DNA of 64,000 nucleotides from Elusimicrobiota bacterium. GTDB lineage: Bacteria; Elusimicrobiota; Elusimicrobia; F11. The translations under genes were made by a program, and so were the position numbers. Every line of letters begins with the position of its first letter. Position 1 is the stretch's first letter. Location of the stretch: contig JBGAON010000001.1 of assembly GCA_044221725.1 (NCBI GenBank), forward strand, positions 672,001-736,000, read 5' to 3'. Of the stretch, positions 19,231-53,273 are shown one piece after another. The notes beneath the pieces were generated by a model, which did not search any database, was not told the origin of the DNA, and saw nothing but the letters and a program-made list of their open reading frames with translations.

Positions 19231-19774
19231 ACGCGCGATAACGCTTGCGGCAGGTATATTTCTTTTCTGTTCGTGCGGAGGATGCCGACACGGTATGGAG
19301 GAACAGCCGAAGTTTGAACCGTTTCAAGAGAATCCGTTTTTCGCGGACGGTAATTCGGCTCGGCCGCGCGTGCCGGGCACGGTGGCGCACGGATCGTTTG
19401 CCGGCACGGATCCGACGAAAAAAAGGCCTTTCTCTGTGACGCGCGAGCGCTTGGAAAAAGGGCGACAAAGTTACGATGTGTTTTGTTCGGCGTGTCACGA
19501 CCGGGTGGGAGCCGGTGCCGGAATGATTGTGCAGCGCGGTTTTCCAGCGCCCGCGACGTTTCACAGCGAGCGTTTGAGGAATGCGTCGGATAATTATTTC
19601 TTCGATGCGATCACAAACGGATTCGGTCGCATGTATCCATTTGCGGATCGGATCCCAATCGAGGAAAGATGGGAGATCGTTGCGTACATTCGGGTTTTGC
19701 AACTCAGTCAGAACGTGCGCGTGAAGGATATCCCAAAAGCGGCGCGTGAGAAACTTGAACGGACGTCCCAATGA
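19214..19774 (+). CDS. actE: Alternative complex III subunit ActE, monoheme cytochrome c lipoprotein
   Basis: Lipoprotein-like GC, MEEQPKF, CSACH heme motif, GFGRM axial Met, RWEIVAYIRVLQ. Confidence 0.88.
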   Translation: MTSSRERAITLAAGIFLFCSCGGCRHGMEEQPKFEPFQENPFFADGNSARPRVPGTVAHGSFAGTDPTKKRPFSVTRERLEKGRQSYDVFCSACHDRVGAGAGMIVQRGFPAPATFHSERLRNASDNYFFDAITNGFGRMYPFADRIPIEERWEIVAYIRVLQLSQNVRVKDIPKAAREKLERTSQ

Positions 19775-20901: not shown

Positions 20902-21206
20902 TTCACGAGAAACAGGATTTGGGTTTCCGAATTGTCGCCTTGGCGCTGGGCGCGCTTCTGATTCTAATGGGGGTGGTGCACCTGGTTTCAATAACGATGA
21001 ATCCGCGCATCGTTGAACAGACAAAAGCCTTTCCACCCAAACCGCGTCTGCAGGCAGATCCCGCACGCGAACTTACGCGATTGCGCGAATCGGAAGACGT
21101 CGTGTTAAAGAACTACGGTTGGGTTGATCGCTCGCGAGGCATTGTGCATGTGCCGATCTCTGATGCGACCGAATTGTATTTGCAAAGACAGCGGAGTCGC
21201 CCGTGA
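20898..21206 (+). CDS. Small membrane-anchored protein, ActG-like
   Basis: One TM segment, PPKPRLQ, YGWVDR...VHVPISDA; lies between actF and SCO. Confidence 0.7.
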   Translation: MIHEKQDLGFRIVALALGALLILMGVVHLVSITMNPRIVEQTKAFPPKPRLQADPARELTRLRESEDVVLKNYGWVDRSRGIVHVPISDATELYLQRQRSRP

Positions 21207-21979
21207 ACCGCACATTTGGAATGTTGCTTTTTCTGTTGGTCGTCGAAGCGTCGGCAGCGCCGAACAAAATGTTGGACAGCGTGAGCTTTGATCAAAATCT
21301 TAACGCGCAAATTCCGTTGGCGCTGGAATTCAAAGACGAACATGGGCAAGCGGTGTCATTGAAAAACTATTTTTCCGACAAACCGGTGATCTTAAGTCTC
21401 GTTTACTACGACTGTCCGATGCTGTGCACGGAAACATTGAACGGGATGGTGCGCGTGCTGCGATCCCTCAAATGGAATGTCGGCGACCAGTTCAATGTTT
21501 TGACCGTGAGTTTTAATCCGCGCGATACGTCCGCGCTCGCGCTGGCGAAGAAAAACTCTTATGGGAATCGTTACGGTCGCGCGGGCGCTGCGACCGGCTG
21601 GACATTTCTTACCGGCGATGAAGATAATATCGAGAAGCTTACGAACGCGGTCGGCTTCCATTATGTTTACGATTCAAAAGCCGATCAATACGCGCACTCG
21701 ACCGGCATTCTCGTCGTCACACCTCAAGGAAAAGTTTCCCGGTACTTGTACGGTGTCGAATATTCCGCGCGCGATCTGCGCCTGGCTCTGGTGGATTCCG
21801 TGAACGGAAAAATTGGCTCGCCGGTCGATCGAATTCTGCTCTATTGTTATCACTACGATCCGTTGACAGGAACCTATGGTGTGCGGGTGATGCGCGTGTT
21901 GCGGGTGGCCGCGTTCTTCACCGTGATATTCGTCTTGTTCCTGGCTGGGGCGCTGACGGTTTGGCCACGGGGTGCCTAA
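21203..21979 (+). CDS. SCO1/SenC family copper chaperone
   Basis: CPMLC (CxxxC), YAH copper ligand, LYCYHYDP. Confidence 0.9.
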   Translation: MNRTFGMLLFLLVVEASAAPNKMLDSVSFDQNLNAQIPLALEFKDEHGQAVSLKNYFSDKPVILSLVYYDCPMLCTETLNGMVRVLRSLKWNVGDQFNVLTVSFNPRDTSALALAKKNSYGNRYGRAGAATGWTFLTGDEDNIEKLTNAVGFHYVYDSKADQYAHSTGILVVTPQGKVSRYLYGVEYSARDLRLALVDSVNGKIGSPVDRILLYCYHYDPLTGTYGVRVMRVLRVAAFFTVIFVLFLAGALTVWPRGA

Positions 21980-22629
21980 TGGGAAACTTAACGTTTTTCC
22001 CGGAAGCGGCATCGGAAATTTCGCACGAGGTCGACGCGCTTATGCTGTACGTGCTCGGCGTTGCAATTTTCTTCTCGGTTCTCATTTCCACTCTCATTGT
22101 TTATTTCTCGATCAAATACCGGTTCCCGACAAGCGCGGATCGTTCGAAACCGGTTTCCTCGAACATTCTTCTCGAAATAGTGTGGACCGGAATTCCTCTG
22201 TTATTAGCGCTGACCATGTTCGCGTGGGGCTCGCGTTTGTTTATTCGCATGCACGAGCCGCCGCCGGACGCTATGGATATCTATGTGATCGGCAAGCAGT
22301 GGATGTGGAAAATGCAACATCCCGGCGGGCAGCGTGAGATAAATGAGCTGCATGTTCCGATTGGCCGCTCGGTGCGCCTTCGTATGACGTCGCAAGACGT
22401 GATTCACAGCTTTTTTGTGCCGGCGTTTCGACTCAAGCAAGATGTGTTGCCGGGGCGTACCACGTTCGCGTGGTTCGCCGCAACGCGGGCCGGCCGGTAC
22501 CATTTGTTCTGCTCGCAATACTGCGGCACCTCGCACTCGGCGATGGTGGGATGGGTGGAGGCGATGCCGCCGGCCGATTATCAGCGTTGGCTGAGCGACA
22601 ACGCCGGCCGTACCAGGGGCACGCCGTGA
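21979..22629 (+). CDS. coxB: Cytochrome c oxidase subunit II (CuA), without C-terminal cytochrome c domain
   Basis: [29 protein letters not shown]uA motif. Confidence 0.93.
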
Positions 22630-24221
22630 AAAACTATCTAAACGATGGATACTCGGTGCGCTCATGGCTTCTTTCGACGGACCACAAACGCATTGCACTG
22701 TTGTATTTGTTTTCAATTACGTTTTTTTTCGTTGTCGGTGGTTTTGCAGCGCTGCTAATGCGGTTGGAGCTGTTAACGCCGGCCGGCGACCTTGTGCAAG
22801 CAGAAACCTACAACAAGCTGTTCACGATGCACGGCGTGACCATGGTTTTTCTTTTCTTAATTCCTTCAATTCCATCCGTGCTCGGAAATTTTCTTGTTCC
22901 GCTGATGGTCGGCGCGCACGACATGGCGTTTCCCAAGCTCAATTTGGCCAGCTGGTATCTTTTTATGCTGGGCGGAATTTTTACGCTGGCCGCAATGATT
23001 TTGGGCGGCGTCGACACCGGTTGGACTTTTTATGCACCCTACAGCAGTGTTTATTCCACGACACCGGTGATCACGATGGCGGTCGGAATTATTATTGCTG
23101 GCTTTTCTTCGATCCTTACCGGACTCAATTTCATGGTGACGATTCACCGGTTGCGGGCACCGGGGCTGACGTGGCCGCGACTTCCGCTTTTCATTTGGTC
23201 GATGTACGCCACGAGCGTCATTTTCATTCTCGGAACACCCGTGCTGACGATGTCGCTCGTCTTAATTGCGCTGGAGCGTGTGTGGCGCATCGGCATATTC
23301 GATCCGGCGCTCGGTGGGGATCCGTTGCTTTTTCAGCATTTGTTCTGGTTCTATTCGCATCCGGCGGTGTACATCATGATTTTGCCGAGCATGGGTGTTG
23401 TGAGCGAAATCGTTCCGTGTTTCGCTCGCAAACGCATCTTTGGCTACAACTTTGTGGCCGGCGCCAGCTTGGCTATTGCGGCGCTTGGATTTCTCGTGTG
23501 GGGACACCACATGTTTGTGTCGGGCCAGTCGGTATACGCGGGCCTGGCGTTCTCGTTGTTTAGTTTTCTCGTAGCCATTCCATCGGCTGTTAAAGTGTTT
23601 AATTGGACGGCCACGTTGCACAAAGGTCGCATCTATTTGCGCACGCCAATGCTGTACGCGCTTGGATTCATTGGCCTTTTCACAATGGGCGGGCTCACGG
23701 GCCTCATGCTTGCGTCGCTCGGACTGGATGTGCACGTGCACGACACGTATTTTGTGATCGCGCACTTTCACTACATCATGGTGGGCGGCGCTGTGATGGG
23801 ATATTTGGGCGCGATTCATTTTTGGTGGCCAAAAATGTCGGGTCGTCTCTATCCGGAATTCTGGGGAAAAATTTCGGCCGTCATTGTGTTTATTGGATTC
23901 AATCTCACGTTCTTCCCGCAATTTGTTCTCGGGTATCTCGGCATGCCGCGACGATACTTTCATTATCCGCCCGAGTTTCAAGTGTTGAATGTTTTCTCGA
24001 CGGCGGGCGCCTCCATTCTCGGTGTTGGATATCTTTTGCCGTTGCTTTATTTGATTTGGTCCTTTCGGTATGGAGCGTCGGCCGGAGACAATCCGTGGAA
24101 TGCCACGGGGCTCGAATGGCAAACCGCGTCGCCGCCAACAACGGAGAATTTCGCGTCAGCGCCGACGGTAACCGAGGAAGCTTACGCGTACGAAAAACGC
24201 ACGGAGGCGCCGCGTGTCTGA
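22626..24221 (+). CDS. coxA: Heme-copper oxygen reductase subunit I, type A2
   Basis: [20 protein letters not shown] (YS motif typical of A2), VWGHHMF, HFHY, GMPRRY. Confidence 0.95.
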
Positions 24222-24834
24222 TCACGAACAAGAAAATTTGAACCGCGATGCGTCTCAAATCGGCATGTGGATTTTTCTTGCAACCGAAGTTATGTTTTTC
24301 GGCGGCTTGTTCACCGCGTACAGCGCGTTTCATTATCGGCACGCGGATGCGTTTGCCTCCGCCGGCGGCCACACGGATTTGTGGATGGGCGCTGTGAACA
24401 CCGCGGTGCTTCTCCTTAGCAGTCTTACCATGGCGCTCGCTGTCGAAGCAGCGCGAGGGACTTCATCGCGTTCGCTCCTGCGGTATCTTTTGGCGACGAT
24501 TGGGCTTGGTTCAATTTTTCTTGTGCTGAAAGGAATCGAATACGTTCATCACATCAATGAACATCTTTTCCCGGGGCCCACTTTCGACTACTCGCCGAAC
24601 AGCTTTCGCGGGCCGGCCGAGTTGTTTTTTTATTTGTATTTCACGATGACCGGCCTGCACGCGCTGCACATGATCATTGGCATCTTGGTTTTGGTCGCGC
24701 TCGCCGTGCTTGCAAAACACAGGGCCGGCGGCGTTTCGGATACGGCGGTCACATTAACGGGCCTTTATTGGCATTTCGTGGACGTCATTTGGATTTTTCT
24801 GTTCCCCATGTTTTATTTGGTTCGGAGCCGTTGA
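24214..24834 (+). CDS. coxC: Cytochrome c oxidase subunit III
   Basis: [30 protein letters not shown]. Confidence 0.93.
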
Positions 24835-24836
24835 AC

Positions 24837-25106
24837 GTGCCGGAGAATCACCAAAAGACATTGTTGAAAGTGGCGGTGATACTTTTGCTGTTGCTTGCAT
24901 TGACCGTGGGGCTCTCGTTTGCCCAGTTGGGCAAATTTGGTTTTCTCGTGGCGCTTTTGATTGCCGCGGCAAAGGCCGTCCTGGTGGTTTGGTTTTTCAT
25001 GGAACTGCGCGTGGGCAGCGAGACCGTGTGGATCATGTCGTTGCTGGGTTTCTTTTGGCTTTTTATTTTGATCGCTGGAACGTTGGCGGATATTTCTAAC
25101 GCTTGA
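24837..25106 (+). CDS. coxD: Cytochrome c oxidase subunit IV family protein
   Basis: Three hydrophobic helices, IAAAKAVLVVWFFMEL motif; start approximate (TTG 24831 or GTG 24837). Confidence 0.8.
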   Translation: MPENHQKTLLKVAVILLLLLALTVGLSFAQLGKFGFLVALLIAAAKAVLVVWFFMELRVGSETVWIMSLLGFFWLFILIAGTLADISNA

Positions 25107-25182: not shown

Positions 25183-25255
25183 GTGCCCGTAGCTCAGCTG
25201 GTAGAGCATACGACTTTTAATCGTAGGGTCGAGAGTTCGAATCTCTCCGGGCACA
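25183..25255 (+). tRNA. tRNA-Lys(TTT)
   Basis: Cloverleaf: acceptor gtgcccg/cgggcac, anticodon arm tacga-cTTTtaa-tcgta, TTCGA loop; CCA not encoded. Confidence 0.97.
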
Positions 25256-25265
25256 TATCAATAAA

Positions 25266-25337
25266 GGCCCCATCGTCTAACGGTTAGGACATCAGCTTTT
25301 CAAGCTGACGATCGGAGTTCGATTCTCCGTGGGGTCA
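25266..25337 (+). tRNA. tRNA-Glu(TTC)
   Basis: Acceptor ggcccca/tggggtc, anticodon arm tcagc-ttTTCaa-gctga, TTCGA loop. Confidence 0.96.
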
Positions 25338-25506: not shown

Positions 25507-28347
25507 ACGAATCGAATAACGAAATCAAAGGGTGTTTCGCTGCCGGAATTGATCGTGGGAACGATGGTCATCGGTCTGGTCGTCATTGGTTCGGCTCGGT
25601 CTCTCGTGCCGGTTTACCGCGGCTACGTCCGGAATCAGCAAGTCCTCAAGATCGAACAAAAATTAAACACGGTAACGGATGTTATTCGCCACGACACCGA
25701 TAGTTTTGACTTGCCTTCTTTTACCCAACTCACGCCCGCCAAGCACCCCGCTTCTGACGCGCAAGTCGAAGTGCTGTACACAGTCCAAAATATTGATCCA
25801 ATCAGTCGGTCGCGGGACGTCAATTTAACAGCAACATGGATCGCCGGAAACAACGACGCCAATTCATTGGTGCGAACGCGAACATTCACCGTCATGAAAC
25901 TCCGGAATTCGTTGCGGAACGCAATGATTACTGGGACGGTCGTTCATCCAAATGGTGCGCCGGCGGTCGGCATAAATGTTACGGCTCCCGGACAGGTGTT
26001 GGCTCAGGTTTCTGCTGTAACGAACGCGAACGGTGAATATGCGTTGAGCAACGTGCTCGTTTCAAAAGATGGGATCTATATCACCGTCAATGGCGAATCG
26101 AAGCGCAATTATTTTCTCAATCCCGCTTCTTTTCACAAAGATTTCAAAACCGCCGAGACCAAGGAACAAACAACGGTTCAAATGCCTCCGATTGAGATTC
26201 GTCCGCCCGGAAAAATTCAAGGCCGCGTGACGATGGTAAATTCATCAAATGGTGTCCCCAACGTGAAGATTTTCGTGGTCCAAAAACAAATGATCATTAA
26301 TGGCGACTACAAACAAACGGCCATCACCGATGAGAACGGGGATTATGTTTTTACGGACGTGATCACGGGGCAATATTGGATTTACATGCTCGGAAACAAC
26401 AGTATCGCCGCTCATGGGAAACCGGCTGCTTTTGGTTATGACAAGACGACCAAATCCCTGCTCGATCCCGGCGATTACTATAAGTTTAACCCAACGAATA
26501 CGCACGCGACGGTGGACAGTGGCAGCACGGGCGACGCGTTGACAAAAAATTTCTCCGTTATCAAAAAAGGAGATGTGCATGGGACGGTCCGCACCGTTCG
26601 TTACGTCGGTGGTCAGTACGTTGTCGGCCAACCGCTGGCAAACCAAACGTTTCGATTCCAGAGATACTATGCGTTTACAAACATCAACTCTCCATCCCAA
26701 GGCACGTTGCTCGATTTTCGGAATACCACAGCGTTTCGCGACGTCTACTTCAATTATTTTGATTTGAGTTTAAGTAACTTCGGACCAAATTATGAGAGTT
26801 ATTACGATGAAGATTTGCCGTTCACAACGGATGCCAATGGAAATTATACGGTGCCAAATGTCGGGCCTTCGATTGTTGACCCGACTCAAGATATGTCGCT
26901 GCAATACACCACCGCTAAAATCGGTATCGGATCTTTTCAATACGATAACACGTCACAAAAGCCTGCCTCGCCGATATTTGTAGTGTTGCCGCTCACGTCC
27001 CCGCGTTTCGCGATTCCCGGGTGGGGCTCTTTTGAATATCGTCCAGCATATGTCCCTCCGGCCTCGCCGAATTTCACTCCGACACTCGGCGGACCTGTAA
27101 GTAGTGACGGTTCTCCGCTCACCCCTTTTAACAACACTTACGACGATCCTAACCTCGATGCGTTTGGTCATCCAAAGCTGTTTGCCGGCGTCGACAATGT
27201 GTACGACATCTACTTGCTCGAGCGGGAAGACGGCACGTTTGGCAACATCTATGGAGAAATTTCGAATTCGGACGGTTCGCCGTTTCCGTATTTGGGGTAC
27301 ACGCAGGCCGCCTTAACCGCGGAAGTTAGGGATATTGGAAGTATGAACTCCGTAACCCCTTTTGGTCTGTCGCCTTCATTTTGGTGCGTCGCTCCGGATT
27401 ATTCCACGCGCAATTGTTTTAATTTCAAATACAAAACCAATTTCGTGTCGAACTATTGGGTCGACTATCGTGGCTTAATTCCGAATCTCGATGCGACCGA
27501 CAGAACGCGTTTGTATTTCACTCAATACGGGCCGAGTACGATGGTGGATGTCTATATAAAGGGCAGCGTGCGCGCCTACCGAAAAACCCAAGATAATGGG
27601 AAATTTGATTTTGAGCAATTGATTCCTACCGATACCAATTTGACTCTAGCGGTCGAAGCGCGGCACGGTCAGGCATGGAGTACGGCTTTCCCGGTATGGT
27701 GGAATGAAAATCTTTCGGTTACGAATGGTCTCTTTGTCACCGGCGCGCACTCCAACGATACCTACATGGAGTATTTAGGGAAGGGTGTTGCCGACGTACA
27801 ACCGGGTCAGGATACCTATTGCCCTATTACCATTGATGATTCTCAAACACGCCAGCGTTGGGGTGGATTTGTGCTTCGGGTTACCGGCGGAGAGTGGACG
27901 CAATACATACAGGAAACCAGTGCGGGCGAATATGTTTATACGGACTACAATTCGGCGCACCCTGCTAACGAACTGACTGGGATGTTAAGCCTCTACCATA
28001 TCAGCAAGGCGAACGTGACGGGAGTCGTAAAGAATGCGGCGGGAAATCCAATAGCGAACGCTGTTGTGCGTTTGATGCGATCGTCCACCTACGGATATAT
28101 CGACCCGGTATATTATCATCCGGATTATCCGCCGCTCTATTTTCAAACAGGGGCCGATGGCCGCTTTACTTTTAGTGATGTGAAATTTGTCGAGTTGCAG
28201 GGAACGAATCTCAACATCAAGGTCACCGCATCAGGATATATTGAAGGAACCGATACGTCGGAAGCCATCGATGGTTTTTCTTGGACGCGAGATTTCACGT
28301 TGCTGACACCCGCCGTCACTGCGATCGTGAGCGATGGTGATTTGTAA
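25507..28347 (+). CDS. Large prepilin-type (PilV-like N-terminus) protein with carboxypeptidase-regulatory-like beta-sandwich repeats
   Basis: In-frame class III signal KSKG/VSLPELIVGTMVIGLVV lies upstream of the ORF-track TTG (25549); repeats of I.G.V....G.P....V / TD.NG.Y.F..V type; start codon uncertain (ACG 25507 after GGAGG). Confidence 0.75.
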   Translation, partial: TNRITKSKGVSLPELIVGTMVIGLVVIGSARSLVPVYRGYVRNQQVLKIEQKLNTVTDVIRHDTDSFDLPSFTQLTPAKHPASDAQVEVLYTVQNIDPISRSRDVNLTATWIAGNNDANSLVRTRTFTVMKLRNSLRNAMITGTVVHPNGAPAVGINVTAPGQVLAQVSAVTNANGEYALSNVLVSKDGIYITVNGESKRNYFLNPASFHKDFKTAETKEQTTVQMPPIEIRPPGKIQGRVTMVNSSNGVPNVKIFVVQKQMIINGDYKQTAITDENGDYVFTDVITGQYWIYMLGNNSIAAHGKPAAFGYDKTTKSLLDPGDYYKFNPTNTHATVDSGSTGDALTKNFSVIKKGDVHGTVRTVRYVGGQYVVGQPLANQTFRFQRYYAFTNINSPSQGTLLDFRNTTAFRDVYFNYFDLSLSNFGPNYESYYDEDLPFTTDANGNYTVPNVGPSIVDPTQDMSLQYTTAKIGIGSFQYDNTSQKPASPIFVVLPLTSPRFAIPGWGSFEYRPAYVPPASPNFTPTLGGPVSSDGSPLTPFNNTYDDPNLDAFGHPKLFAGVDNVYDIYLLEREDGTFGNIYGEISNSDGSPFPYLGYTQAALTAEVRDIGSMNSVTPFGLSPSFWCVAPDYSTRNCFNFKYKTNFVSNYWVDYRGLIPNLDATDRTRLYFTQYGPSTMVDVYIKGSVRAYRKTQDNGKFDFEQLIPTDTNLTLAVEARHGQAWSTAFPVWWNENLSVTNGLFVTGAHSNDTYMEYLGKGVADVQPGQDTYCPITIDDSQTRQRWGGFVLRVTGGEWTQYIQETSAGEYVYTDYNSAHPANELTGMLSLYHISKANVTGVVKNAAGNPIANAVVRLMRSSTYGYIDPVYYHPDYPPLYFQTGADGRFTFSDVKFVELQGTNLNIKVTASGYIEGTDTSEAIDGFSWTRDFTLLTPAVTAIVSDGDL

Positions 28348-28999
28348 GTCGGGTTATCGCAGCTCCACGCGCGCGGGAGTTACGCTCATCGAAGTCATCA
28401 TTATTGTCCTGTTGCTCACGGCCGCGATTGCGCTCGCACAGAAAGGGGTCGGGGTGGTTAACACGCTTGTTAATTTTAAAGCGAGCATGGAGGCACAAAG
28501 TATGGCGGACGCCGCCATCTCTCGACTGATTCAAGAACTAAAAAATGCAAATAACATTGTTACGCTCGAACCTGGAAAACTTGTGTTTACGGTATTTAAC
28601 ACGGAACGCGGTTACGATGTGAATCAATTTGATTTTTTGGATCCAGCCACGTTTGGCACGGTGGCGTACGAATTTGTCACGACTCCGCAGGGAGCTCGAC
28701 TCAAACGCACCGTGGATTTCCCGGCGGCGGCTTTGCGGCACGGCGTCAATGCGGCGTATCACGAAGAGGGGTTTCTCTGCACCAATATTTTGGTTCCGCC
28801 CGACACGAGCAATCTCGCGAGCGTCAAGGCAACGAGCATTTTTGCTCCGATATTCGGATGGACCGCGGCCCCCTTTTCAATGGTCGCCGCTGATAAACTC
28901 GATGCTGTTCGCATATCGTTTCGAGTGAAACCGCCGTTGGCCGTGCGAGCCGTGCGCACGTTCGAGCAGGATATCACGTTGCGATCGCGAGTGATTTGA
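28334..28999 (+). CDS. Prepilin-type N-terminal cleavage/methylation protein (PilW-like minor pilin)
   Basis: RAG/VTLIEVIIIVLLL class III signal with Glu at +5. Confidence 0.8.
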   Translation: MVICKSGYRSSTRAGVTLIEVIIIVLLLTAAIALAQKGVGVVNTLVNFKASMEAQSMADAAISRLIQELKNANNIVTLEPGKLVFTVFNTERGYDVNQFDFLDPATFGTVAYEFVTTPQGARLKRTVDFPAAALRHGVNAAYHEEGFLCTNILVPPDTSNLASVKATSIFAPIFGWTAAPFSMVAADKLDAVRISFRVKPPLAVRAVRTFEQDITLRSRVI

Positions 29000-30342
29000 T
29001 GCGACACCCAAAAACGAATAACGCGGGCTCCATGTTGGTTTACGCGGTGGTCATCGCGTTAACGGCCGCAGTTCTTTTTGCAGCGATCGGGCGAATTGCA
29101 CGTTACAACGCATCGCAGTTTGTTCATACCGAAGCAACAAATCGACTCATGCAAATTGCCGAGAAAGGATTGAACGAAGCAATCAGCGAATTGGGGCGCA
29201 ATTCGGATATCGCGTTGTTTGACACGTCCATCAAAGTAAGCCCGGATGATCCGTTAGCAACCTATCAAAATACCGTCCAACGGCGGGATATACCGGAACT
29301 GGGAATTTATTACATCAAGACCACCGTCAGCCGCACAACCAACGGTTCCACTGAAAAGGCTGCGCTGCATTCGTATGTGCGTGTGGTCAATGTGTCCGAC
29401 TATTTTGCTGCGGTTTCCGATGTGCTCACAATTTCACATGGCGCGGATATCAGTGGCGGGAAGATTTATGCACCCAAATTGGTGTTTCAATGGAACGATG
29501 GGAATTCAACGCCGACGCGCGTCGGTTCGGCGGCGTTTTACGATACGTGTGATCCACCCTTGGCCGGTGATAAAAGTTGGCCCGGAAATGTAAAACAGGA
29601 TGTGCAAATACTGAACACGCCGAAGAACGCACCGGTTCAATTAACGGCTCCTTTGTTTTTTCCGCAATTAAGCGATCAGGACATGGCGCGGTACCGAATT
29701 CTTGCTGGTCCGCACACCGTGCAAAACACGTTTTCCGGGGAAATCTACCCGCCCGGCTATTCCGATTTCACGACGAACGAAGCGGGGGACACCTATAATG
29801 ATTCGGGTGGAAACAGTCTCCACACCACCGAAAACACGCAGCATGTGTATTTCTTTGATGGTGATATTTATCTGCAAGGTCGCGTTCATGGTCAAGTGCT
29901 TTTTGTTGCGACAGGCGATATTCACATCACCGGCGATTTGCGCTGCGCTGATAATGCCGAGGCGTTGCCTGGAGGGGGCGCCGCCGATTCTTCCAAAGCG
30001 CATCAGCCGGTTGTTCTCACGAAAAAAAATATTTTTATCGACAAGATAACGGTGGATCCGAACGCGCCCGGCACGGTGACCGAAACAATTCAGGGTTTGT
30101 TTATCGCGCCGAACAGCTCGTTAATTCCTGTTTCGTACGGCAACGAAACAATTCACGGTAAATTGGTTCTCGATTTCACAGGGTCGTTGATTATGTCGAC
30201 GTTGAAATCGACTCCAACATTGCCGTCCATTTTTAAAGCCGGACGGACATATGCGTATTTGGATTCGTTGGCAACAAACACGCCGCCCTACCTGCCGGCG
30301 TTCGCGGAAATTCTGTACTCGTTGTTTGATCAATCCATTTAG
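28999..30342 (+). CDS. PilX-like minor pilin with large C-terminal domain
   Basis: NNAG/SMLVYAVVIAL (no Glu +5, as in PilX/GspK), IAEKGLNEA motif; third gene of pilin-like operon. Confidence 0.7.
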   Translation: MRHPKTNNAGSMLVYAVVIALTAAVLFAAIGRIARYNASQFVHTEATNRLMQIAEKGLNEAISELGRNSDIALFDTSIKVSPDDPLATYQNTVQRRDIPELGIYYIKTTVSRTTNGSTEKAALHSYVRVVNVSDYFAAVSDVLTISHGADISGGKIYAPKLVFQWNDGNSTPTRVGSAAFYDTCDPPLAGDKSWPGNVKQDVQILNTPKNAPVQLTAPLFFPQLSDQDMARYRILAGPHTVQNTFSGEIYPPGYSDFTTNEAGDTYNDSGGNSLHTTENTQHVYFFDGDIYLQGRVHGQVLFVATGDIHITGDLRCADNAEALPGGGAADSSKAHQPVVLTKKNIFIDKITVDPNAPGTVTETIQGLFIAPNSSLIPVSYGNETIHGKLVLDFTGSLIMSTLKSTPTLPSIFKAGRTYAYLDSLATNTPPYLPAFAEILYSLFDQSI

Positions 30343-30360
30343 TGGCGGAGGAGGTTCGCT

Positions 30361-30870
30361 ATGTTGAACAAATTTATTTTCGTGCTGCTTGTGTTCTGTG
30401 GCGTGTTGATTTTTGCTTTGTCACAACTTCATCGCGTTCCACCGGCGCTCCCCTCGCATGGAAGGGTGCTTACCCCGGAACAAGGCAGCACGGCGATGCA
30501 TGAACAACAACAAACGACGGCTCTTTCGAGTGTAACGGAGGCGATTCCTCAAGAGAAAGGCAATGCGGCCGGTGCTGTTGCAAACCGTATAAAAGAAATT
30601 CCGGTAACTCGAACCGACCTGCAGAAAGCCCCGGTCGGCGAATTTCAAGGCGCTCCCATCGAAGATTCGCGTTTCATTAAAAAATACACGCTCGAACCGG
30701 GAAAACTAAACTCGGTGCCGCAGCTCAGCCATCCGATGGTAATGACCGAAGAAAATGCAAAATTGATGTTGCGGCAACCGCCCATGCCAGCGATGTCGAA
30801 CCCGGTGAATGCCGCGCCACCGGCAGGATGGATGCCCTCGCCCCAAAATATGACCCGTGAGCGGAAATAA
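30361..30870 (+). CDS. Hypothetical membrane-anchored, Pro-rich protein
   Basis: GGAGG RBS, N-terminal hydrophobic segment. Confidence 0.6.
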   Translation: MLNKFIFVLLVFCGVLIFALSQLHRVPPALPSHGRVLTPEQGSTAMHEQQQTTALSSVTEAIPQEKGNAAGAVANRIKEIPVTRTDLQKAPVGEFQGAPIEDSRFIKKYTLEPGKLNSVPQLSHPMVMTEENAKLMLRQPPMPAMSNPVNAAPPAGWMPSPQNMTRERK

Positions 30871-30975
30871 CGGGCCCGTCTCGGTCTCCCGCACAACTCT
30901 TAAAATTGTACATTGTTACAGCTTATTTACGGTTTTTTAACCTCTCCTTAATTTCCGTATGTTAAAAGTTTGGAG

Positions 30976-33900
30976 ATGCGAAAATCGTCCTCCCTTTCGA
31001 AAATATTTTCCGCGTCGCTGTGTACCGTTTATTTCGCTACAAATTGCACTTTCGCGTATTCCGCCGAAGTTAATTTTTGGACCGAACGACGGCAAGCTTC
31101 GACGTTACCAACGCCGTTGCCCCGGCATGTCTCTGTCCAGGGCGCCCTTTTTTCCTCTCTCGCCTCCTGTGGCACCGTCCGCAAAATATTAAGACCCTCC
31201 GGCATTGCGAAGTCCACGGTTCTCCATATTCAGGATGTGCACATGAACGGGGACGCGCAGAAATATATCGGGAACGCGCTTTCGCAGCTGATGAAGTCCA
31301 AAAATATTGAATTCGTTGCGCTGGAAGGAGCGTTCGGCGCAATTGATCTTTCCGTATTTCAAACATACTCCGAGCCGCACGCCGTGAAAGCGGCCGCCGA
31401 TTTTCTGCTACGCGAGAACAAGATTTCCGGTGCGATACATGCTCTCTTGGTGAGTCATTCCGCGGTCAACGCTATTGGAATCGACGATGAAACCCACTAC
31501 CGTGCAAACGTGGAAGCGTACCGCCGTTCCGCTCCTCTTATCCCGTCGATAAAAAAGCAACTTGTCGAACAAGAAAAACGGCTTGCCGAAAAAAAGAAGA
31601 ATATTTTTAACTCGCAGCTCGCGGCGTTTGATGCGCAGGTTGCGGCTTATCATGGTGGCGTTGTCAGTATGGCCAATTATGTGAGAGCTCTTTTGAAATA
31701 CGATTCAATGCCGACCAGCAACATTCGGTTGTACGAGAAATGCGTCGCGCTGGAAAACGCATTGGATTTCTCGCGAGTCGAAGCGCAGCGCACGGCACTT
31801 CTTGCTGTTCTAACAAAACGCCTCTCCGAGAATGAAAGCGCTGGGCTCCTCACGGCGACCGCAGATTACCGCAAAGACCGACTTCGACATGCGGATTTTT
31901 ATGGATATCTGAAGAAACTTTGCACATCCAAAGGTATTTCGCTGACACGGTACCCGGCCATGGATGATTATCTTCGGTATGTAACTATGAGCGACGCGAT
32001 CAACGCTGAGAAACTTTTGACCGATATGCGTGTCGCAGAAGCCAGCGTCTACGAGCAGCTCGCGCGCAGCAGCGACGAACGTGCGCTCGTTACGGAATCC
32101 CGGCAGCTTTATTTGATTGGAAGACTCGTCGATTTCTCTTTGACACGCGAGGAATGGAAAGAAATCAAAAAGATACGTCGTGATGCCCAATCCTCTTTGC
32201 GTTCGTTCGAAGATTTTTATGAGCGAGCGGAGTTGCGTGATGAGGCGATGGCGCGCAATCTCTTGAATAAAATCCAACGCACGACATGCGCTGTGCCAAA
32301 TACTGTTGTCTTGGTCACCGGCGGTTTCCACTCCGCCGGTATCGACCAACGCCTCGTTGATGCGGGTTGCACCGTCGTCTCGTTTGTCCCCAAAATTTCT
32401 CACTTGGGGATTGGCAGCGCGAGCAGCGGTGATAGTGCCAAAGAAAACTATCTCAGTGTGTTCACCCAACAAAAGTCGCCGTTGGATTTGCTTTTTGAAG
32501 GCAATCGGTTGTTCCTTTCTCCCGAGCAATGGACGCCTGCCATTCGCGGTTTCGCGGGGGTGCTTGCCACGGCATCGGAAATTCGGTTTTTAGGAAATAA
32601 AGTTTCGCAGCGCCGGATTGAAAATGATTTGTCTCGTTTAACGGGAATCAAAGCGCAGCATGTGGATGTGTATCGAAAAGACAGAATGGTTAATCTCACC
32701 GTTAACCGCGACGTTCGTGTGAAAACCATATTCGACTCGTTCGATAATATTGCTGACGTCAATCAGGAAAAATCGCGTTGGACCGGCGCGCTCTTCACAG
32801 ATCCGTTCCACGAGTGGGGTGTTTTTATTCCGGTGCCGCTGTCGGTGGCGTTCGCATTCTTTACGGCCGGCGTGACGGGATTCGCAGGGTCGCCGTGGAT
32901 CATTGTTTTGACGGCGCTCGGAACCGGGTTCAGTGTTATGGCCTTTTCGTTTATTCCGCTCCACTATGTTTGGACAAACGAAATTCACACGGCCCGGTCT
33001 TATACGTTTTTAAAAGATTTCCGCGCCAAATCCAGCAAGCGGGAAATCTCTCTGTTTGAGTACCGACAGAAACTCGGCGATCTCTTCGTTAAATTTTACG
33101 TCGTCACGTTTGCCGCTGTGATAGCGATCTCCTTGCTGCCGGTTGGTATGGAGCGTCTGACTCCGAAGCAATGGTTCGCACTTTCGTTGGCGGTGCTCGA
33201 CGTTGCGTTGGTTGTTCATCTGTCTCATCACTTGCTGCACAACTTTTTGTTTTGGTTGGGAATAAGGGATATTCCGGGCGCATCTCAGGCGTCACCGAAA
33301 AAGACGGCTCACGATTTGCGCCGTGCGGTTGCAAGGGTCCCTTATCCTGATGCGCTGTTCTTGCTCGAAGCGCTCGAGATCCGATTAATGATGAAGAAAG
33401 AACCACCGACGATGGATTGGGTGATCGATTTCTTCGCCCAGAAAAACAGACGGATAAAACCCACCGCGGATTTCGTTCGTCCTCATTTAATGACTATTTT
33501 CCGCGAGATGCAGAATCTTGGAAGGGTGCGGACCTTCGATGACGAGTTAAAGGAAATATGGGACGCGGTTATTCGCTTGGTGGACGAATCCAGACAGAAT
33601 CCAACCGCGAAGGCAAAGCCAGCTCCAGCGCCGACGAAAGCCGTGGGTATTGCGAACGCCAATTTGGGCGGTTATGAGCAGTTGTTGCTTCGAAGGATGG
33701 TGGACGGACTCACGACGAGTTACCATTTTACGCTGCGCGATATTCAAAATTGGTTTCAATTATTTGATGAGCGCGCTGCGCATAAGAAAGTGCGTGAAAT
33801 CCTGTATCACCTCGAGAGTTATTTCTTGCCCGCCGACATGGACGCCGACCTCACAAAAGCCGTGAAGGAATTCGAGCGCCTCGCGGGCTCCGATGTGGCG

Positions 33901-36900
33901 AACGCCGCGATCACGATCAATACATCAAAATTCACGAGCAAGCGTCCTCTCTCTTACCGTTACCGTCGCGCGCTGAAAAGGGGAATTCTTCCCAATATTC
34001 CGGTGGTGCTGTTTGCGCTGTCGGCCATGGCGCCGCGCATGGTGTTTTTCGATGCCTCCGGCGTTTGGACAATAATTCCCGGTGTCTCAAAGCTCAAGGC
34101 CGTTCGAAAGGTTGGGCCAATTGGAGAAGGCGTCGGCGTTGTGGCGCTTTTTGCTTTGACGATCTCCGTTTGGAAAGTAGGACTGAGTGACTTGTGGTGG
34201 GTCGCGCTCGTAGCGCTCACGCCGTTCGCCATCATTCACGTGCTAAGCCAGATTTGGATGGATATCGATGGTCGCATCGAAACTCGCGGCGTGTTGCCTT
34301 GGAACGATGTTCGAATCTCATCACGCGACGCGATTATCGTGTTTATGCGGTCGTTTGTGCCGAGCGCGGTTTATTATCTTCCTTTCATTTCCGTCGTCCT
34401 GGGTCGTTCGGAAATCCGAGACGTCTCGTTTCTTGTTTTTGAATTTCTGTTGATCCTCTCTTTGATTTGGGCCTTCGGGCGGCACTATCAGGCGAATATG
34501 CGGCGACTCCAAAATCGTCATGTACGTGTCGATGCTGCGTTCGCGAAAAAATTCGCCCGTCGGGTCCGATATGTTTCCGCCTACGGTAAGCCGGGGGCCG
34601 GCAAAGGCACGATTCTCAAACAATTTATTGCCGAACTGAATTCACATCTTCCAGCGAACAAGCAATACGTGGTTCTCACGATGGGCGATATCTTTCGCGC
34701 GCTTGCAAAGAAAAGGAAGGGCGAAGACGCCGGAATATTTGATGCGCTGACGCTGCCAGAGTCTGCCGTGCGCGCGATGGAGTCCGGAAAAATCATCGAT
34801 GATGCGATCGCGCTCGATATATTAAATGAAGCGTTAAAGTTGGAACCGTTCCGCCGTGCGTACGGAATTATTTTTGACGGTTTCCCGCGCAGCTCCGCGC
34901 AGCTTGATGCCCACAATCAAGGAAAAGTCTTCATTAACGAAAGGCCGCTTCACTTGGATTTCAATTTCATTTTGGACATTGAGGATGCCACGATTCGCAC
35001 GCGCGCCGAGAAACGACGCAGCGGCGAGATTCAACGCGCGGACCGGGAAGGCCGCGCGCCGCAAGTGCGACCCGACGATGCGCCAGAAAAAGTGGAAGCG
35101 CGCATTGTTGATTTCAATTCCGTCACACGGCCAGCCGTTGAACGCAAACGTGGCGACGCCGACACGATTGTATTGAACGGCGAGTTGTACCCGAAGGTGG
35201 TCTACCGAAACTTTCTGCTCGAGACGAATCATTGGCTTGATAAACAAGCGCTCTGGCGCCGCTTCGCCGCTCGCGTTGTCGCTCCTTCAATTCTTCTTTC
35301 GACGGTCGGGAGTCTTGCGCCGGCAATGCCAGAGGGGAATACGATCACGATGCTTAATGCCGTGGCCTGGATGACGCTGATGTTCATCCCCGTGCTGCCT
35401 CTTGCGTTCGTCGCTATTTACCGAAAATATGTGCAGCCGCGTCGGGCGTATCGCGCGCCTTCTGCCGACGCACGGGTTGGCACCGGAGTGGATTTTGAAG
35501 TGATTCGCCTAGAGAAGTCGCCCCTTCCGCTTGAAATAAACGTTCCGAAAAATATTTGGCGGCAATTTTCACCGGAAGCCCAACAAAAAATCATTCGGGC
35601 CGCTACGTGGCAAGACAGGCCCCTCGAGAAGAACGTGCAAGGCCGAACGATTCGCGTTTATTTTGACGCGGTTGAGTCGGTTAATGGCGTGGAGTTAGCG
35701 GGCGTCGAATTAAAAGGATTGGTATGGAAAGACCCGAAAACGGGACGCATCCAGCCCCCGCGGATGGAACGATATTTTGGGGGCGGGCGTCGCGCGTCCG
35801 TCATGAAATTCGACCGCTGGTCCCGCCCGGTGTTCGTCGGTGAGAAAGACGCTCCCCAAGGCGCCATGACATTCGATTATGCTGCGAAAGAATGGGTGTC
35901 CGGGCATAAGCTTTGGAGCGAAGCTATGCCGATTGATTTGCCAATTGGGTTCGGAAAACTCATTGGGCCGCGCTCCCAGTTTTTTGATGGCCAGAGCAGA
36001 AAAGATGTTGGCTTTGCCATTCGCGGTATTCGAGACGTTGAAGAAAAGCGGTTGTTGCACGACATCGGCGATCGCCTTAGCGGTTTGCCGTTTGACCTCG
36101 AACGGCCAGCGGCTGTTGATGGCGCGGCGCTCGCCGATATTGACGCGGTCGCCGCTCAAAAATTTCGCGAGTTTGGCCGGTTGCTGCGTTATTTCCACGA
36201 TCGCGGTTTTATTCATGGAAGCCCACACACCGATAACGTGGTTGTCGATGGCGAACGATCGAATTTCAAAGATTTAAACACCGTTATTGAAGAGAAAAAA
36301 AATCCGCGCGATCAGGCCATTGTTCTTCAGCTGTTTGATTTGTCCATCGCATGGACGTCGCTTTTGATCATGAAACGTGAGACGGAATCACTTCTCCAAC
36401 ATCGTCTCCCGATAGAAGTTTTTTGGAATGGCTATTTTGGCGAATTCCTAAAGGAACACGATCCGAACGCTTTCGGTGCGATGGTCGTGAATTTTATACA
36501 TATGGAGGCAACTTCTGCGCCGCTGTTCGAAAGCGATTCCATTGTTACGAAGGTAATCGGGAGCATCGTCGGGCCGTTGCGTCAACCGGATTTTCCGCAA
36601 CCCATTCTTGCGTCCTTGCCCGATACGCGAATTTTGTCACGCGCACGAGTGATGCATGAAATAGAGCGTCTGAAAGGTCTCAGTTACGATGTTTATGTGG
36701 GATTAACCGCTGCATCCAAAGTTCAACAGGTTTTTGTGGATGTGGCCACATTGGCAAGGATGATTGATAAAAACAATCTGCTAGCGGCGTTTCACCGCGG
36801 AAAGTTATTTCTTGTTCATAAAAAACATCCGGCGGCGTACGCGTTTAAGCGGGATGCCCTTGAGCGACGTGCCCGGTGGGAAGAAGTTATGGGCGAACCC

Positions 36901-37161
36901 TACAAAGAAGACCCGCACGCACCGAAAGCGCCGTGGTACGTAAAGTTATTTAAGGGAGAGCAGTTAAATCTTGGCGTTTCGAGTTTTGGAAAGGCGCGAC
37001 GCCGTTCGGGAAATACTCCGGCGCCGCGAAATCCGGTGCCCGTTGCGGCGGATGACAAACGCAGTTACGCGCGCGAGGCGCTGTTCCGAGCTCTTGGCGT
37101 TCGCCGTTCTCCAGCGTCCACGACTGTTACCGACGAGCAAACTCGCCGAAAAGCTGCTTAA
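30976..37161 (+). CDS. Giant (~2061 aa) secreted/membrane multi-domain protein: TraB/EreA-like N-terminal domain, two CPBP-like membrane modules, NMP-kinase-like domain and SelO/kinase-like domain
   Basis: Long uninterrupted ORF; signal-like N-terminus; HIQDVH, LEGA, RDEAM, VTGGFH; GKPGAGKGT...DGFPRS; ELKG...FIHGSPHTDN...FKDL; domain calls from motifs only. Confidence 0.75.
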   Translation: MRKSSSLSKIFSASLCTVYFATNCTFAYSAEVNFWTERRQASTLPTPLPRHVSVQGALFSSLASCGTVRKILRPSGIAKSTVLHIQDVHMNGDAQKYIGNALSQLMKSKNIEFVALEGAFGAIDLSVFQTYSEPHAVKAAADFLLRENKISGAIHALLVSHSAVNAIGIDDETHYRANVEAYRRSAPLIPSIKKQLVEQEKRLAEKKKNIFNSQLAAFDAQVAAYHGGVVSMANYVRALLKYDSMPTSNIRLYEKCVALENALDFSRVEAQRTALLAVLTKRLSENESAGLLTATADYRKDRLRHADFYGYLKKLCTSKGISLTRYPAMDDYLRYVTMSDAINAEKLLTDMRVAEASVYEQLARSSDERALVTESRQLYLIGRLVDFSLTREEWKEIKKIRRDAQSSLRSFEDFYERAELRDEAMARNLLNKIQRTTCAVPNTVVLVTGGFHSAGIDQRLVDAGCTVVSFVPKISHLGIGSASSGDSAKENYLSVFTQQKSPLDLLFEGNRLFLSPEQWTPAIRGFAGVLATASEIRFLGNKVSQRRIENDLSRLTGIKAQHVDVYRKDRMVNLTVNRDVRVKTIFDSFDNIADVNQEKSRWTGALFTDPFHEWGVFIPVPLSVAFAFFTAGVTGFAGSPWIIVLTALGTGFSVMAFSFIPLHYVWTNEIHTARSYTFLKDFRAKSSKREISLFEYRQKLGDLFVKFYVVTFAAVIAISLLPVGMERLTPKQWFALSLAVLDVALVVHLSHHLLHNFLFWLGIRDIPGASQASPKKTAHDLRRAVARVPYPDALFLLEALEIRLMMKKEPPTMDWVIDFFAQKNRRIKPTADFVRPHLMTIFREMQNLGRVRTFDDELKEIWDAVIRLVDESRQNPTAKAKPAPAPTKAVGIANANLGGYEQLLLRRMVDGLTTSYHFTLRDIQNWFQLFDERAAHKKVREILYHLESYFLPADMDADLTKAVKEFERLAGSDVANAAITINTSKFTSKRPLSYRYRRALKRGILPNIPVVLFALSAMAPRMVFFDASGVWTIIPGVSKLKAVRKVGPIGEGVGVVALFALTISVWKVGLSDLWWVALVALTPFAIIHVLSQIWMDIDGRIETRGVLPWNDVRISSRDAIIVFMRSFVPSAVYYLPFISVVLGRSEIRDVSFLVFEFLLILSLIWAFGRHYQANMRRLQNRHVRVDAAFAKKFARRVRYVSAYGKPGAGKGTILKQFIAELNSHLPANKQYVVLTMGDIFRALAKKRKGEDAGIFDALTLPESAVRAMESGKIIDDAIALDILNEALKLEPFRRAYGIIFDGFPRSSAQLDAHNQGKVFINERPLHLDFNFILDIEDATIRTRAEKRRSGEIQRADREGRAPQVRPDDAPEKVEARIVDFNSVTRPAVERKRGDADTIVLNGELYPKVVYRNFLLETNHWLDKQALWRRFAARVVAPSILLSTVGSLAPAMPEGNTITMLNAVAWMTLMFIPVLPLAFVAIYRKYVQPRRAYRAPSADARVGTGVDFEVIRLEKSPLPLEINVPKNIWRQFSPEAQQKIIRAATWQDRPLEKNVQGRTIRVYFDAVESVNGVELAGVELKGLVWKDPKTGRIQPPRMERYFGGGRRASVMKFDRWSRPVFVGEKDAPQGAMTFDYAAKEWVSGHKLWSEAMPIDLPIGFGKLIGPRSQFFDGQSRKDVGFAIRGIRDVEEKRLLHDIGDRLSGLPFDLERPAAVDGAALADIDAVAAQKFREFGRLLRYFHDRGFIHGSPHTDNVVVDGERSNFKDLNTVIEEKKNPRDQAIVLQLFDLSIAWTSLLIMKRETESLLQHRLPIEVFWNGYFGEFLKEHDPNAFGAMVVNFIHMEATSAPLFESDSIVTKVIGSIVGPLRQPDFPQPILASLPDTRILSRARVMHEIERLKGLSYDVYVGLTAASKVQQVFVDVATLARMIDKNNLLAAFHRGKLFLVHKKHPAAYAFKRDALERRARWEEVMGEPYKEDPHAPKAPWYVKLFKGEQLNLGVSSFGKARRRSGNTPAPRNPVPVAADDKRSYAREALFRALGVRRSPASTTVTDEQTRRKAA

Positions 37162-37990: not shown

Positions 37991-38062
37991 GGGCAGTTAG
38001 CTCAGCGGAAGAGCATCCGCCTTACACGCGGAGGGTCGGGGGTTCGAACCCCTCACTGCCCA
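37991..38062 (+). tRNA. tRNA-Val(TAC)
   Basis: Acceptor gggcagt/actgccc, anticodon arm tccgc-ctTACac-gcgga, TTCGA loop. Confidence 0.96.
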
Positions 38063-47858: not shown

Positions 47859-48077
47859 TATCGAGGGATATTTTAACTCATCGGATTGAAAATATTGATA
47901 ATTCAATATGTTTCAATGTTTCCCTGATTTTCTTGATTCCCTCAGACTTCAAAATTCTCCCGAAAGAACCCGCAAAATGTCGTGATTCATCCCAAACCGG
48001 CAAGAATTAATACTACATAACGACTTCAAAAGGAATTTCGCAGACTTCGAAATATTTCGAGGACTCCCACTTTGGAC

Positions 48078-49118: not shown

Positions 49119-49247
49119 ATTAATTTCCTCCTATAGAGAGTCGTCACAATAGTTATTCACAATCTTGGGACGTTCATTACTCTTTATATGGGAAATCATG
49201 ATTTCTATTTACAATGACAAGGATTTCAATCGTTATCGTCTGGATAA

Positions 49248-49285: not shown

Positions 49286-49300
49286 CCCAGGCTAGAGGTA

Positions 49301-53271: not shown

Positions 53272-53273
53272 TA

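Follow-up and report, generated by a model that had tools for sequence, protein, structure and literature searches.

P0001, a giant modular protein of an Elusimicrobiota bacterium

We analysed a 64,000-nucleotide stretch of the genome of an Elusimicrobiota bacterium (GenBank assembly GCA_044221725.1, contig JBGAON010000001.1, positions 672,001 to 736,000 of the forward strand), referred to here as the window. Positions 30976-37161 on its forward strand form a single open frame of 2,061 amino acids from the ATG at 30976, encoding the protein P0001 (Table 1). P0001 is one member of a family of 26 giant modular proteins in this genome, which share a constant head with a TIKI fold and carry variable enzyme tails. 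An earlier description made from the letters alone (the sequence-only reading) had proposed a polyprotein-like chain with a signal-like start, a protease-like head, hydrophobic blocks, an adenylate kinase and a late kinase-like domain. The open frame and every motif that it quoted were recovered: HIQDVH (residue 84, nucleotide 31225), LEGA (residue 116), RDEAM (residue 421) and VTGGFH (residue 447) in the head; GKPGAGKGT (residue 1204, nucleotide 34585), DGFPRS (residue 1301) and RPDD (residue 1365) in the adenylate kinase; and ELKG (residue 1578), GFIHGSPHTDN (residue 1744, nucleotide 36205) and KD (residue 1765) in the late domain. These motifs are not chance occurrences, because the head residues are invariant, the adenylate kinase scores above its Pfam cut-off and the late-domain residues are conserved (see below). 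The signal-like N-terminus was also found, with a basic n-region followed by a hydrophobic stretch, and the motif W.[ED]R lies within the first 110 residues in 134 of the 188 family proteins compared. Residues 760-1005 had no Pfam match and matched only themselves among 1,894 candidates of 432-2,000 amino acids, which is weak evidence.

That separate genes were fused by an assembly or read-through artefact is hardly credible. Three other runs, all of one study, contain contigs that agree with parts of the gene to at least 99%, with no indel or joint listed; they are short, each is partial, and none spans the whole gene, as a fusion would allow. Against a fusion, the 2,061-codon frame is unbroken and has even GC content along its length, the same architecture is present in the 25 paralogs and in 185 database proteins, and adenylate kinase and pseudokinase modules lie inside other head-bearing giants. 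Four metatranscriptome runs, also from one study, yielded scattered short contigs whose depth, approximately 1-9, is no different over the gene than over its neighbours. These contigs are unstranded and come with no silent control, and do not demonstrate that the gene is transcribed.

Table 1. Features of the P0001 gene and the region immediately upstream (window coordinates; residues are those of P0001).
Feature	Position	Strand	Basis
Pilin-like cassette directly upstream	25549-30870	+	label read from sequence
Promoter-like element TTAC-N7-TTAC-N6-TTAA-N7-TTAA	30913..30952	+	boxes at 30916, 30927, 30937, 30948; 10-11 bp period
Predicted extended -10, TG-n-TAAAAG	30960..30968	+	10 nt past last box, 7 nt ahead of ATG
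Giant modular protein gene P0001	30976..37161	+	open reading frame analysis, motif check
Signal-peptide-like start (residues 1-30), then W-x-[ED]-R (residues 35-39)	30976..31092	+	basic n-region and hydrophobic stretch
Predicted TIKI/Ere/ChaN-fold head (residues 57-520) with long helical insertion; candidate site D87, H89, E117, R421, H452	31144..32535	+	conservation, model, structure search
Membrane module 1 (residues 609-760), four predicted helices, CPBP-like E613, H663, H752, N756	32800..33255	+	motif level only
Predicted soluble domain of unknown kind (residues 760-1005)	33253..33990	+	no Pfam match
Membrane module 2 (residues 1047-1178), four predicted helices, CPBP-like E1051, H1088, H1170, N1174	34114..34509	+	motif level only
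Adenylate kinase domain (residues 1195-1420)	34558..35235	+	Pfam ADK
Predicted transmembrane hairpin (residues 1430-1481)	35263..35418	+	hydropathy
Putative SelO-like pseudokinase (residues 1520-1900): R1557, K1580, E1639, R1692, H-G-S-P-H-T-D1753-N1754, D1766	35533..36675	+	sequence/profile comparison
C-terminal tail ending Ala-Ala, family end tag	37114..37158	+	end-residue counts

A family with a constant head and variable tails

In the 2.82-Mb genome, 26 open reading frames (ORFs) with lengths between 775 and 8,881 residues matched a profile of the N-terminal 520 residues, bearing out the prediction that paralogs would share the head and differ in their tails. The tails barely overlap, with 1,335 of 44,993 tail residues matching another paralog (E<1e-5). 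Pfam domains, nearly all of cytoplasmic type, were recognisable in the tails of 13 of the 25 other paralogs and none in those of the remaining 12. They comprise 2-hydroxyacid dehydrogenase, DHQ synthase, HD, hexokinase, PP2C, FHA, protein kinase, sigma70, glycogen synthase, beta-CASP, phosphorylase, GGDEF and uridine kinase domains. Nearly all paralogs have a signal-like start despite these tails; sigma70, DHQ synthase and hexokinase domains lie behind such a start at G000:C5:197498-203413 and C4:575421-584024 and in P0070 and P0099. Rhomboid or S8 proteases are carried by some other family giants. Modules are shuffled between members: the closest relative of the P0001 adenylate kinase is in the giant P0070, and that of its pseudokinase is in the giant P0003.

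The family genes are dispersed among housekeeping genes or arranged in tandem. One tandem array (G000:C2:153694-204047; L004-L006, L025) holds four of them, encoding approximately 2,530, 8,860, 1,975 and 2,936 amino acids, each with its own upstream element (see below), and is interrupted by a transposase that we take to be IS30-like. Among 7,992 database candidates scored, 185 proteins of 1,133-3,607 residues were relatives of the head, and those with an organism name come from Elusimicrobia, Elusimicrobiota or "bacterium F11". The 41 loci that lie in named genomes all belong to Elusimicrobia/Elusimicrobiota or to Candidatus Obscuribacterium magneticum. The distribution of the family is all-or-none: a related genome has either 15-40 matches (22 of the 41, this one included) or none (19); these matches are not copy numbers and the related genomes are not independent. 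The positive genomes are spread over four families. No description of this protein family was found in the literature searched, to which subscription papers and the supplements of the bioRxiv giant-gene paper did not belong.

The head is predicted to have a TIKI/Ere/ChaN fold

Residues D87, H89, Q95 and E117, R421 and the motif G449-G-F-H452 are invariant in all 26 paralogs. Across 64 sequences the same positions are at least 90% conserved, the Phe of GGFH excepted; D87, H89 and E117 are invariant, and R421 and H452 are conserved in at least 90%. A model of the head from this 64-sequence alignment had a predicted local distance difference test score (pLDDT) of 89.2 and a predicted template modelling score of 0.86; folding from the single sequence gave low confidence (pLDDT 37.9). 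In a wide structural search with the model, only three of 48,161 chains reached a Z score of 8 or more: ChaN (Z 9.1, root-mean-square deviation 5.7, 183 aligned residues), EreC (Z 8.8, root-mean-square deviation 4.9, 190 aligned residues) and 2qgm (Z 8.4), all belonging to the TIKI/Ere/ChaN group. BcR135, HopBA1 and the Pasteurella toxin C2 domain came next, with unrelated methyltransferases interspersed at Z 7.9 and 7.2. Foldseek returned no match to the head at E ≤0.001 (BcR135 ranked second with E 0.097), sequence and profile searches of the PDB with the head gave nothing significant, and the Pfam ChaN/Tiki model matched residues 371-454 below its cut-off (E 2e-4).

H89 and E117 are 28 residues apart, a spacing also found in the toxin protease RRSP (H3902/E3930) and in Bcr135 (H85/E113) (PMC6254334). 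The model, the structural search, the conservation and the shared spacing support a TIKI/Ere/ChaN fold with an intact candidate D-x-H/E/R/H active site, in line with the fold that the sequence-only reading had named from motifs. We infer that the head may act as a protease. Behind the head core, a segment at window positions 32410-32535 (residues ~479-520; YLS.F..EKTPL..LF.G.KLFL) is conserved in most paralogs and modelled with low confidence, and could be an element for cleavage or docking.

An adenylate kinase and a predicted SelO-like pseudokinase domain

The P-loop/DGFPR domain was correctly recognised as an adenylate kinase: Pfam ADK (PF00406) matches residues 1204-1389 with 54.3 bits against a cut-off of 26.8 (E 2e-14). 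Its motifs GKPGAGKGT, GDIFR, DGFPR, RAEKRR, RPDD and EAR align with those of the genome's own Adk, and the domain looks intact in sequence. Its arginines presumably take the usual roles in the LID and in nucleoside monophosphate (NMP) binding. The domain is 48% identical to the adenylate kinase of P0070 and approximately 25% identical to the housekeeping Adk, and by sequence it is of a lineage common to other giants and distinct from the housekeeping enzyme. No stand-alone relative was found at E 1e-10 among 644 candidates.

A search with the late domain gave 50 matches, itself included, among 1.84 billion representatives. Its carriers range from short proteins to giants of 7,348 residues, four of the 49 others bear the head, and those with names come from Candidatus Tantalella remota, which we take to be a member of Omnitrophota, and from Auribacterota. 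In one family protein of 3,097 amino acids (L045:3823-13113, forward strand) the domain occurs twice in tandem. The kinase lysine, the alphaC glutamate, the loop asparagine and the metal-binding aspartate are kept, with K1580 conserved in 47, E1639 in 45, N1754 in 44 and D1766 in 49 of 50 aligned rows. The catalytic aspartate of the H-x-D motif is lost; the position is Ser1749 in P0001, and across the 50 rows aspartate falls outside the six most frequent residues at this position.

Several comparisons point to SelO. The HGSPHTDN motif lines up with HGVMNTDN of SelO, including a shifted aspartate that a review describes as catalytic in SelO (PMC12409994). The nearest named cluster in the Atlas contains SelO in 35% of its members (score 0.93, 179 shared features), and hhalign against nine SelO sequences gave a probability of 71% (E 4e-5), against a single SelO 7.6%, in a comparison with no control against other kinase families. 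Pfam SelO (PF02696) had no match in P0001, 43 relatives, this genome or 41 related genomes, and PDB searches with the late domain gave weak kinase matches only (best E 0.007). The domain appears to be a kinase-fold pseudokinase resembling SelO rather than an ordinary kinase, and we consider it fairly probable that it is a SelO-like nucleotide transferase. The sequence-only reading's kinase-like fold is retained in this assignment, to which the missing catalytic aspartate and the resemblance to the AMP-transferase SelO are added.

The tail domains could instead be mostly non-catalytic binders or decoys, with the head a structural module for export or docking and captured domains accumulating without processing. 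The lost catalytic aspartate and the 12 of 25 other paralogs without a recognisable tail domain would fit this, as would the incomplete CPBP layout described below and the examples of ChaN and of the C2 domain of Pasteurella toxin (PMT), two members of the fold that demonstrate that it does not always make a protease (PMC6254334). We regard it as very unlikely. The D/H/E/R/H residues of the head are invariant, the adenylate kinase motifs are intact and the K/E/N/D/R residues of the pseudokinase are conserved, which indicates selection for chemistry.

A shared upstream element and a C-terminal tag

The four-box element ahead of P0001 is likely to represent tandem binding sites of an activator. 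Its leave-one-out score is 32.9 at P0001 and at least 17 in 24 of the 26 paralogs. A genome scan with the element matrix found 47 sites scoring above 14, compared with 0-3 for five shuffled matrices; 25 of the 26 paralogs have such a site in front of them, as do 12 other genes, which include PorV-like genes and giants of 8,369, 8,766 and 18,006 residues (labelled from their sequences). The same matrix, trained on this genome only, scored above 14 at 38 of 41 foreign loci and at 0 of 40 in-gene controls; the controls were not composition-matched and two of the foreign loci are duplicates. We presume a likeness of the element to OmpR/PhoB/CtrA boxes. The genome has nine OmpR-type regulators, none of which could be linked to the element. 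In 19 of 32 high-scoring sites a TAxAAT consensus occurs at offsets 11-16 with the start codon at offset 22-23, and because the -10 hexamer sits so near the start codon, the arrangement suggests that the mRNA is leaderless. Second copies of the element occur just behind a family gene and before mtaB-like and TPR-type genes (G000:C3:793564, G000:C2:130411), and are possibly scars of family-gene gain or loss.

The family also shares its C-terminal end. Alanine is the last residue in 21 of the 26 paralogs, compared with 127 of 1,273 other ORFs. It also ends 16 of the 23 foreign ORFs that are complete and 86 of 116 homologues from databases, a number of which are partial. This tail resembles the tag of the genome's transfer-messenger RNA (tmRNA), ANSQEMALAA, which ends in LAA. 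A 1,616-amino-acid coiled-coil-like protein directly upstream of a family gene (G000:C4:162856-167706, reverse strand) ends in Ala-Ala as well. The 8,369-amino-acid giant (G000:C5:256633-281814, forward strand) lacks the TIKI head, has the second-highest element score with extra upstream boxes, and ends in SQA; it may belong to the same pathway.

The presence of the element before surface-type giants and PorV-like genes speaks for a reading in which P0001 belongs to a surface coat or extracellular enzyme array that acts on the prey envelope or on the contents of lysed prey, with the adenylate kinase salvaging nucleotides. The signal-like start would suit it, and a similar role has been proposed for archaeovorins, the giant proteins of Omnitrophota (10.1101/2023.11.21.568195; PMC10066038). 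P0001 itself, however, has no adhesin domain, carbohydrate-binding domain or C-terminal domain of the type IX secretion system, the sigma factor, FHA and PP2C tails of its paralogs would have no substrate outside the cytoplasm, and the distribution of basic residues marks the cargo side as cytoplasmic (see below). This makes a surface array quite unlikely.

Membrane modules and topology

Hydrophobic blocks were found at residues 615-660, 703-751, 1052-1091, 1120-1168 and 1430-1481; a further block, at 1008-1026, is weak. The blocks of the sequence-only reading are thus real, with the correction that two pairs of them form four-helix modules with a CPBP-like layout and are not plain anchors. 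Both modules contain, in order, P-x-x-E, F-x-x-x-H and H-x-x-x-N; the succession E, FxxxH, HxxxN is that of the catalytic residues in CPBP/Rce1 proteases (PMC11980579). HxxxN behind a hydrophobic stretch occurs at 44.5 per 10,000 positions in the 188 family proteins and at 5.7 in other ORFs, an approximately eightfold difference. The full E..FxxxH..HxxxN/D pattern occurs 18 times in 17 of the 188 family proteins; it was absent from 1,371 other ORFs and from reversed sequences, and 0-4 occurrences were obtained with swapped residues. True Pfam CPBP domains (PF02517) are present in three head-bearing giants of relatives, and no match to PF02517 was found in this genome. We describe the modules as CPBP-like at the level of motif layout only, profile comparison with CPBP not being significant (see below). 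An iterative hidden Markov model (HMM) of the modules was discarded, as it shrank from 39 to 19 matches and lost P0001's own modules.

Lysine and arginine counts place the long loops, the adenylate kinase and the pseudokinase on the cytoplasmic side of the membrane, along with the linker between the head and module 1. In 5-10 of 30 proteins, depending on the threshold, no membrane segment lies between the head and the first cytoplasmic-type enzyme, so head and enzyme would be on the same side. Together with a signal-like start, a head on the same side as a cytoplasmic enzyme is a paradox if the protein is resident in its producer, and one that would be resolved by export into the cytoplasm of another cell.

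An exported effector polyprotein or a resident one

The reading that we favour, with a probability of roughly 0.45, is that P0001 is an effector polyprotein that would be exported, process itself and release cargo to work within the cytoplasm of a prey or host cell. It builds on the observed family with its common head fold and conserved site, upstream element, end tag, mosaic tails and adenylate kinase domain. In this proposal, one activator would turn on the entire family along with giant surface proteins, and the signal-like start would direct the chain out of the cytoplasm. The head, as a putative His/Glu hydrolase, would release or activate the chain. The four-helix modules would sit in a membrane, with their basic loops and the soluble domains on its cytoplasmic side, and would cut the chain at adjacent sites. 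The adenylate kinase would interconvert adenine nucleotides, and the pseudokinase may transfer AMP or another NMP to proteins. The Ala tail would be read by an AAA+ unfoldase or protease, serving either as a handle for export or as a degron, which would take the place of an immunity gene in protecting the producer. The modular effector or polyprotein of the sequence-only reading is thus upheld as a modular family with a fixed head and varied tails, while proteolysis, processing, export, delivery and toxicity are proposed.

The principal alternative is a resident polyprotein of the producer's inner membrane. The head would be a periplasmic (or cytoplasmic) sensor or hydrolase, the adenylate kinase and the pseudokinase would serve the cell's own cytoplasm, the membrane modules would release or tune these enzymes, and the protein would be turned over through its Ala tail in one life-cycle stage. 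Proteins with a signal peptide and many membrane helices are normally Sec-inserted, and the weak segment at 1008-1026, if it is a ninth membrane segment, would separate the head (outside) from the adenylate kinase (inside), the normal topology of a resident protein. The sigma70, GGDEF, kinase and phosphatase tails of paralogs appear regulatory, the Ala tail is like the genome's own tmRNA tag, and no immunity gene would be needed. Residence accounts poorly for the 5-10 of 30 members without an intervening membrane segment, which cannot be head-out and enzyme-in, and it would leave module 1 inverted relative to the lysine/arginine bias. The diversity and turnover of the tails go far beyond housekeeping needs, and the genome keeps a separate, ordinary Adk. 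On balance, we consider a resident polyprotein somewhat unlikely.

Several further results weigh against the exported effector. The Z scores of the head are middling and Foldseek gave no significant match, and one member of the fold, PMT C2, is non-catalytic (PMC6254334). The detector for the CPBP-like pattern was designed on P0001 itself; hhalign of the two modules against CPBP gave probabilities of 0.5% and 0.9%, they ranked 269 and 279 among 395 hydrophobic windows, and EExxxR is incomplete in both, with only P-x-x-E present and the second Glu and the Arg missing. The SelO-type shifted aspartate, D1753, occurs in only 12 of 50 rows, and the late-domain HMM scored 7.7-16.8 bits on seven of nine SelO sequences and 18.4 bits on an aminoglycoside-type kinase. 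Elsewhere, both adenylate kinase and SelO belong to the normal enzymes of the cell. The membrane-segment count was even in 19 proteins and odd in 11, a weak indication obtained with a home-made hydropathy scale. Clustering of 300 neighbours of 65 loci revealed no conserved partner, immunity, delivery or chaperone gene beside the family, and no conserved small partner gene among them.

A bolder form of the exported-effector reading, unlikely as a whole, is a clade-wide effector system of Elusimicrobiota. Dozens of co-regulated, leaderless giants would be exported, inserted into the prey or host membrane and cut by the TIKI head and the CPBP-like proteases, after which their enzymes would commandeer the metabolism of the target. 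This copy would contribute a new SelO-like family and an adenylate kinase, and the Ala tag would replace immunity genes.

Genomic neighbourhood

The cassette directly upstream of P0001 encodes a 932-amino-acid protein with carboxypeptidase-regulatory-like repeats and 221-amino-acid prepilin-like, 448-amino-acid PilX-like and 169-amino-acid proteins; its pilin-like protein was not among the matches to Pfam N_methyl. The sequence-only reading had attached weight to the position of the gene right behind this operon. The position is as described, and a link between the two does not hold as a rule, as such a cassette precedes only two of the 26 paralogs, and was rejected. P0001 has its own promoter-like element. 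Further prepilin clusters, similar in size, occur at other places in the genome, which has 11 strong PilB/PilT/Tad-type ATPase matches and 12 prepilin matches above the cut-off. This richness fits a contact-dependent life and is no proof of one.

The next gene downstream is mutM/fpg. Six tRNA genes lie in the window (25183-25337, 37991-38062 and 56535-61063), with tRNA-Lys/Glu and tRNA-Val flanking the pilin cassette, the giant gene and mutM. On the forward strand at approximately 13840-25106, the sequence suggests genes for an alternative complex III and, behind them, for SCO and cytochrome c oxidase subunits, which would point to aerobic respiration. The stretch at approximately 48000-57000 has a GC content of 38-45% compared with 52% and few long ORFs, and is probably acquired DNA.

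Comparison with known systems

The huge proteins of Elusimicrobiota have been described as poorly characterised (PMC11573180; PMC12057145), and the role of giant proteins in Elusimicrobiota and Omnitrophota is an open question (PMC10066038, PMC11573180, 10.1101/2023.11.21.568195). P0001 is small enough to be cloned in parts and offers defined pieces to test: five candidate catalytic residues in the head, two candidate membrane proteases, an end tag, an upstream element that defines a regulon, and a pseudokinase family of approximately 50 sequence clusters without a Pfam model. If the polyprotein reading is true, it would be a new bacterial route for delivering metabolic enzymes to other cells; if only the SelO-like reading is true, the late domain would be a new branch of kinase-fold nucleotide transferases.

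The closest parallels in overall form are the archaeovorin-type giants of Omnitrophota, which are likewise very long, signal-bearing proteins with multiple membrane helices and metabolic and nucleotide-acting domains, and for which a role in predation, and possibly cleavage, has been proposed (10.1101/2023.11.21.568195; PMC10066038). Their N-termini are reported to have in general no identifiable domains except C39 or S8 peptidases, and neither "Tiki" nor "TraB" occurs in the main text of that study (10.1101/2023.11.21.568195). A relative of the pseudokinase is found in a 4,301-amino-acid protein of Candidatus Tantalella remota. Archaeovorins differ from P0001 in belonging to Omnitrophota, in their length of at least 30,000 amino acids and in their SecA-like, glycosyltransferase, methyltransferase and NUDIX domains, whereas P0001 is an Elusimicrobiota protein of 2,061 amino acids, has none of these domains and is one of 26 paralogs.

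With the TIKI superfamily (ChaN 2G5G, EreC 6XCQ, Bcr135/136, RRSP, HopBA1, PMT C2) the head shares the predicted core fold and the succession of E/D-x-H, a Glu at +28, an Arg and a late His. It differs in a helical insertion of approximately 240 residues, whose length varies between paralogs, in having Asp for the first Glu, in scoring below the Pfam ChaN cut-off and in being a constant N-terminal module instead of cargo. The late domain resembles SelO/YdiU (PF02696; PMC12409994) and MchC-like relatives in having a predicted kinase fold without the canonical catalytic Asp. E. coli SelO K107, E130, D246/N247 and D256 (numbering counted from the sequence, alignment partly by eye) line up with its K-G, alphaC Glu, G-x-P, G-F-x-H-G-x-x-x-T-D-N and metal Asp elements. 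Unlike SelO, it has a conserved H-x-x-P-H-x-x-N loop, keeps the shifted Asp in a minority of rows and is embedded in membrane giants. The membrane modules share with CPBP/Rce1 proteases (PF02517; PMC11980579) four predicted helices with E, FxxxH and HxxxN in order, and differ in that motif 1 contains a single Glu and lacks the Arg, in their longer loops and in their internal, repeated position.

Polymorphic toxins likewise combine a constant N-terminal region with variable C-terminal enzyme domains, and in those coupled to PrsW, which offer a precedent, a membrane peptidase has been proposed to free the C-terminal toxin (PMC3482391). They have immunity genes, in contrast to the giant family, beside which no adjacent immunity gene or linked secretion locus was seen. 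MARTX toxins also place several enzyme domains for release in a target cell on one chain, the TIKI protease RRSP among them (PMC6254334). P0001 differs from these in that no RTX repeats, cysteine protease domain or type I secretion locus was seen, and its family in having integral membrane modules and dozens of paralogs per genome. We conclude that P0001 appears to represent a new variant of the giant modular proteins known from this part of the bacterial tree, for which a specific and testable mechanism can be proposed.

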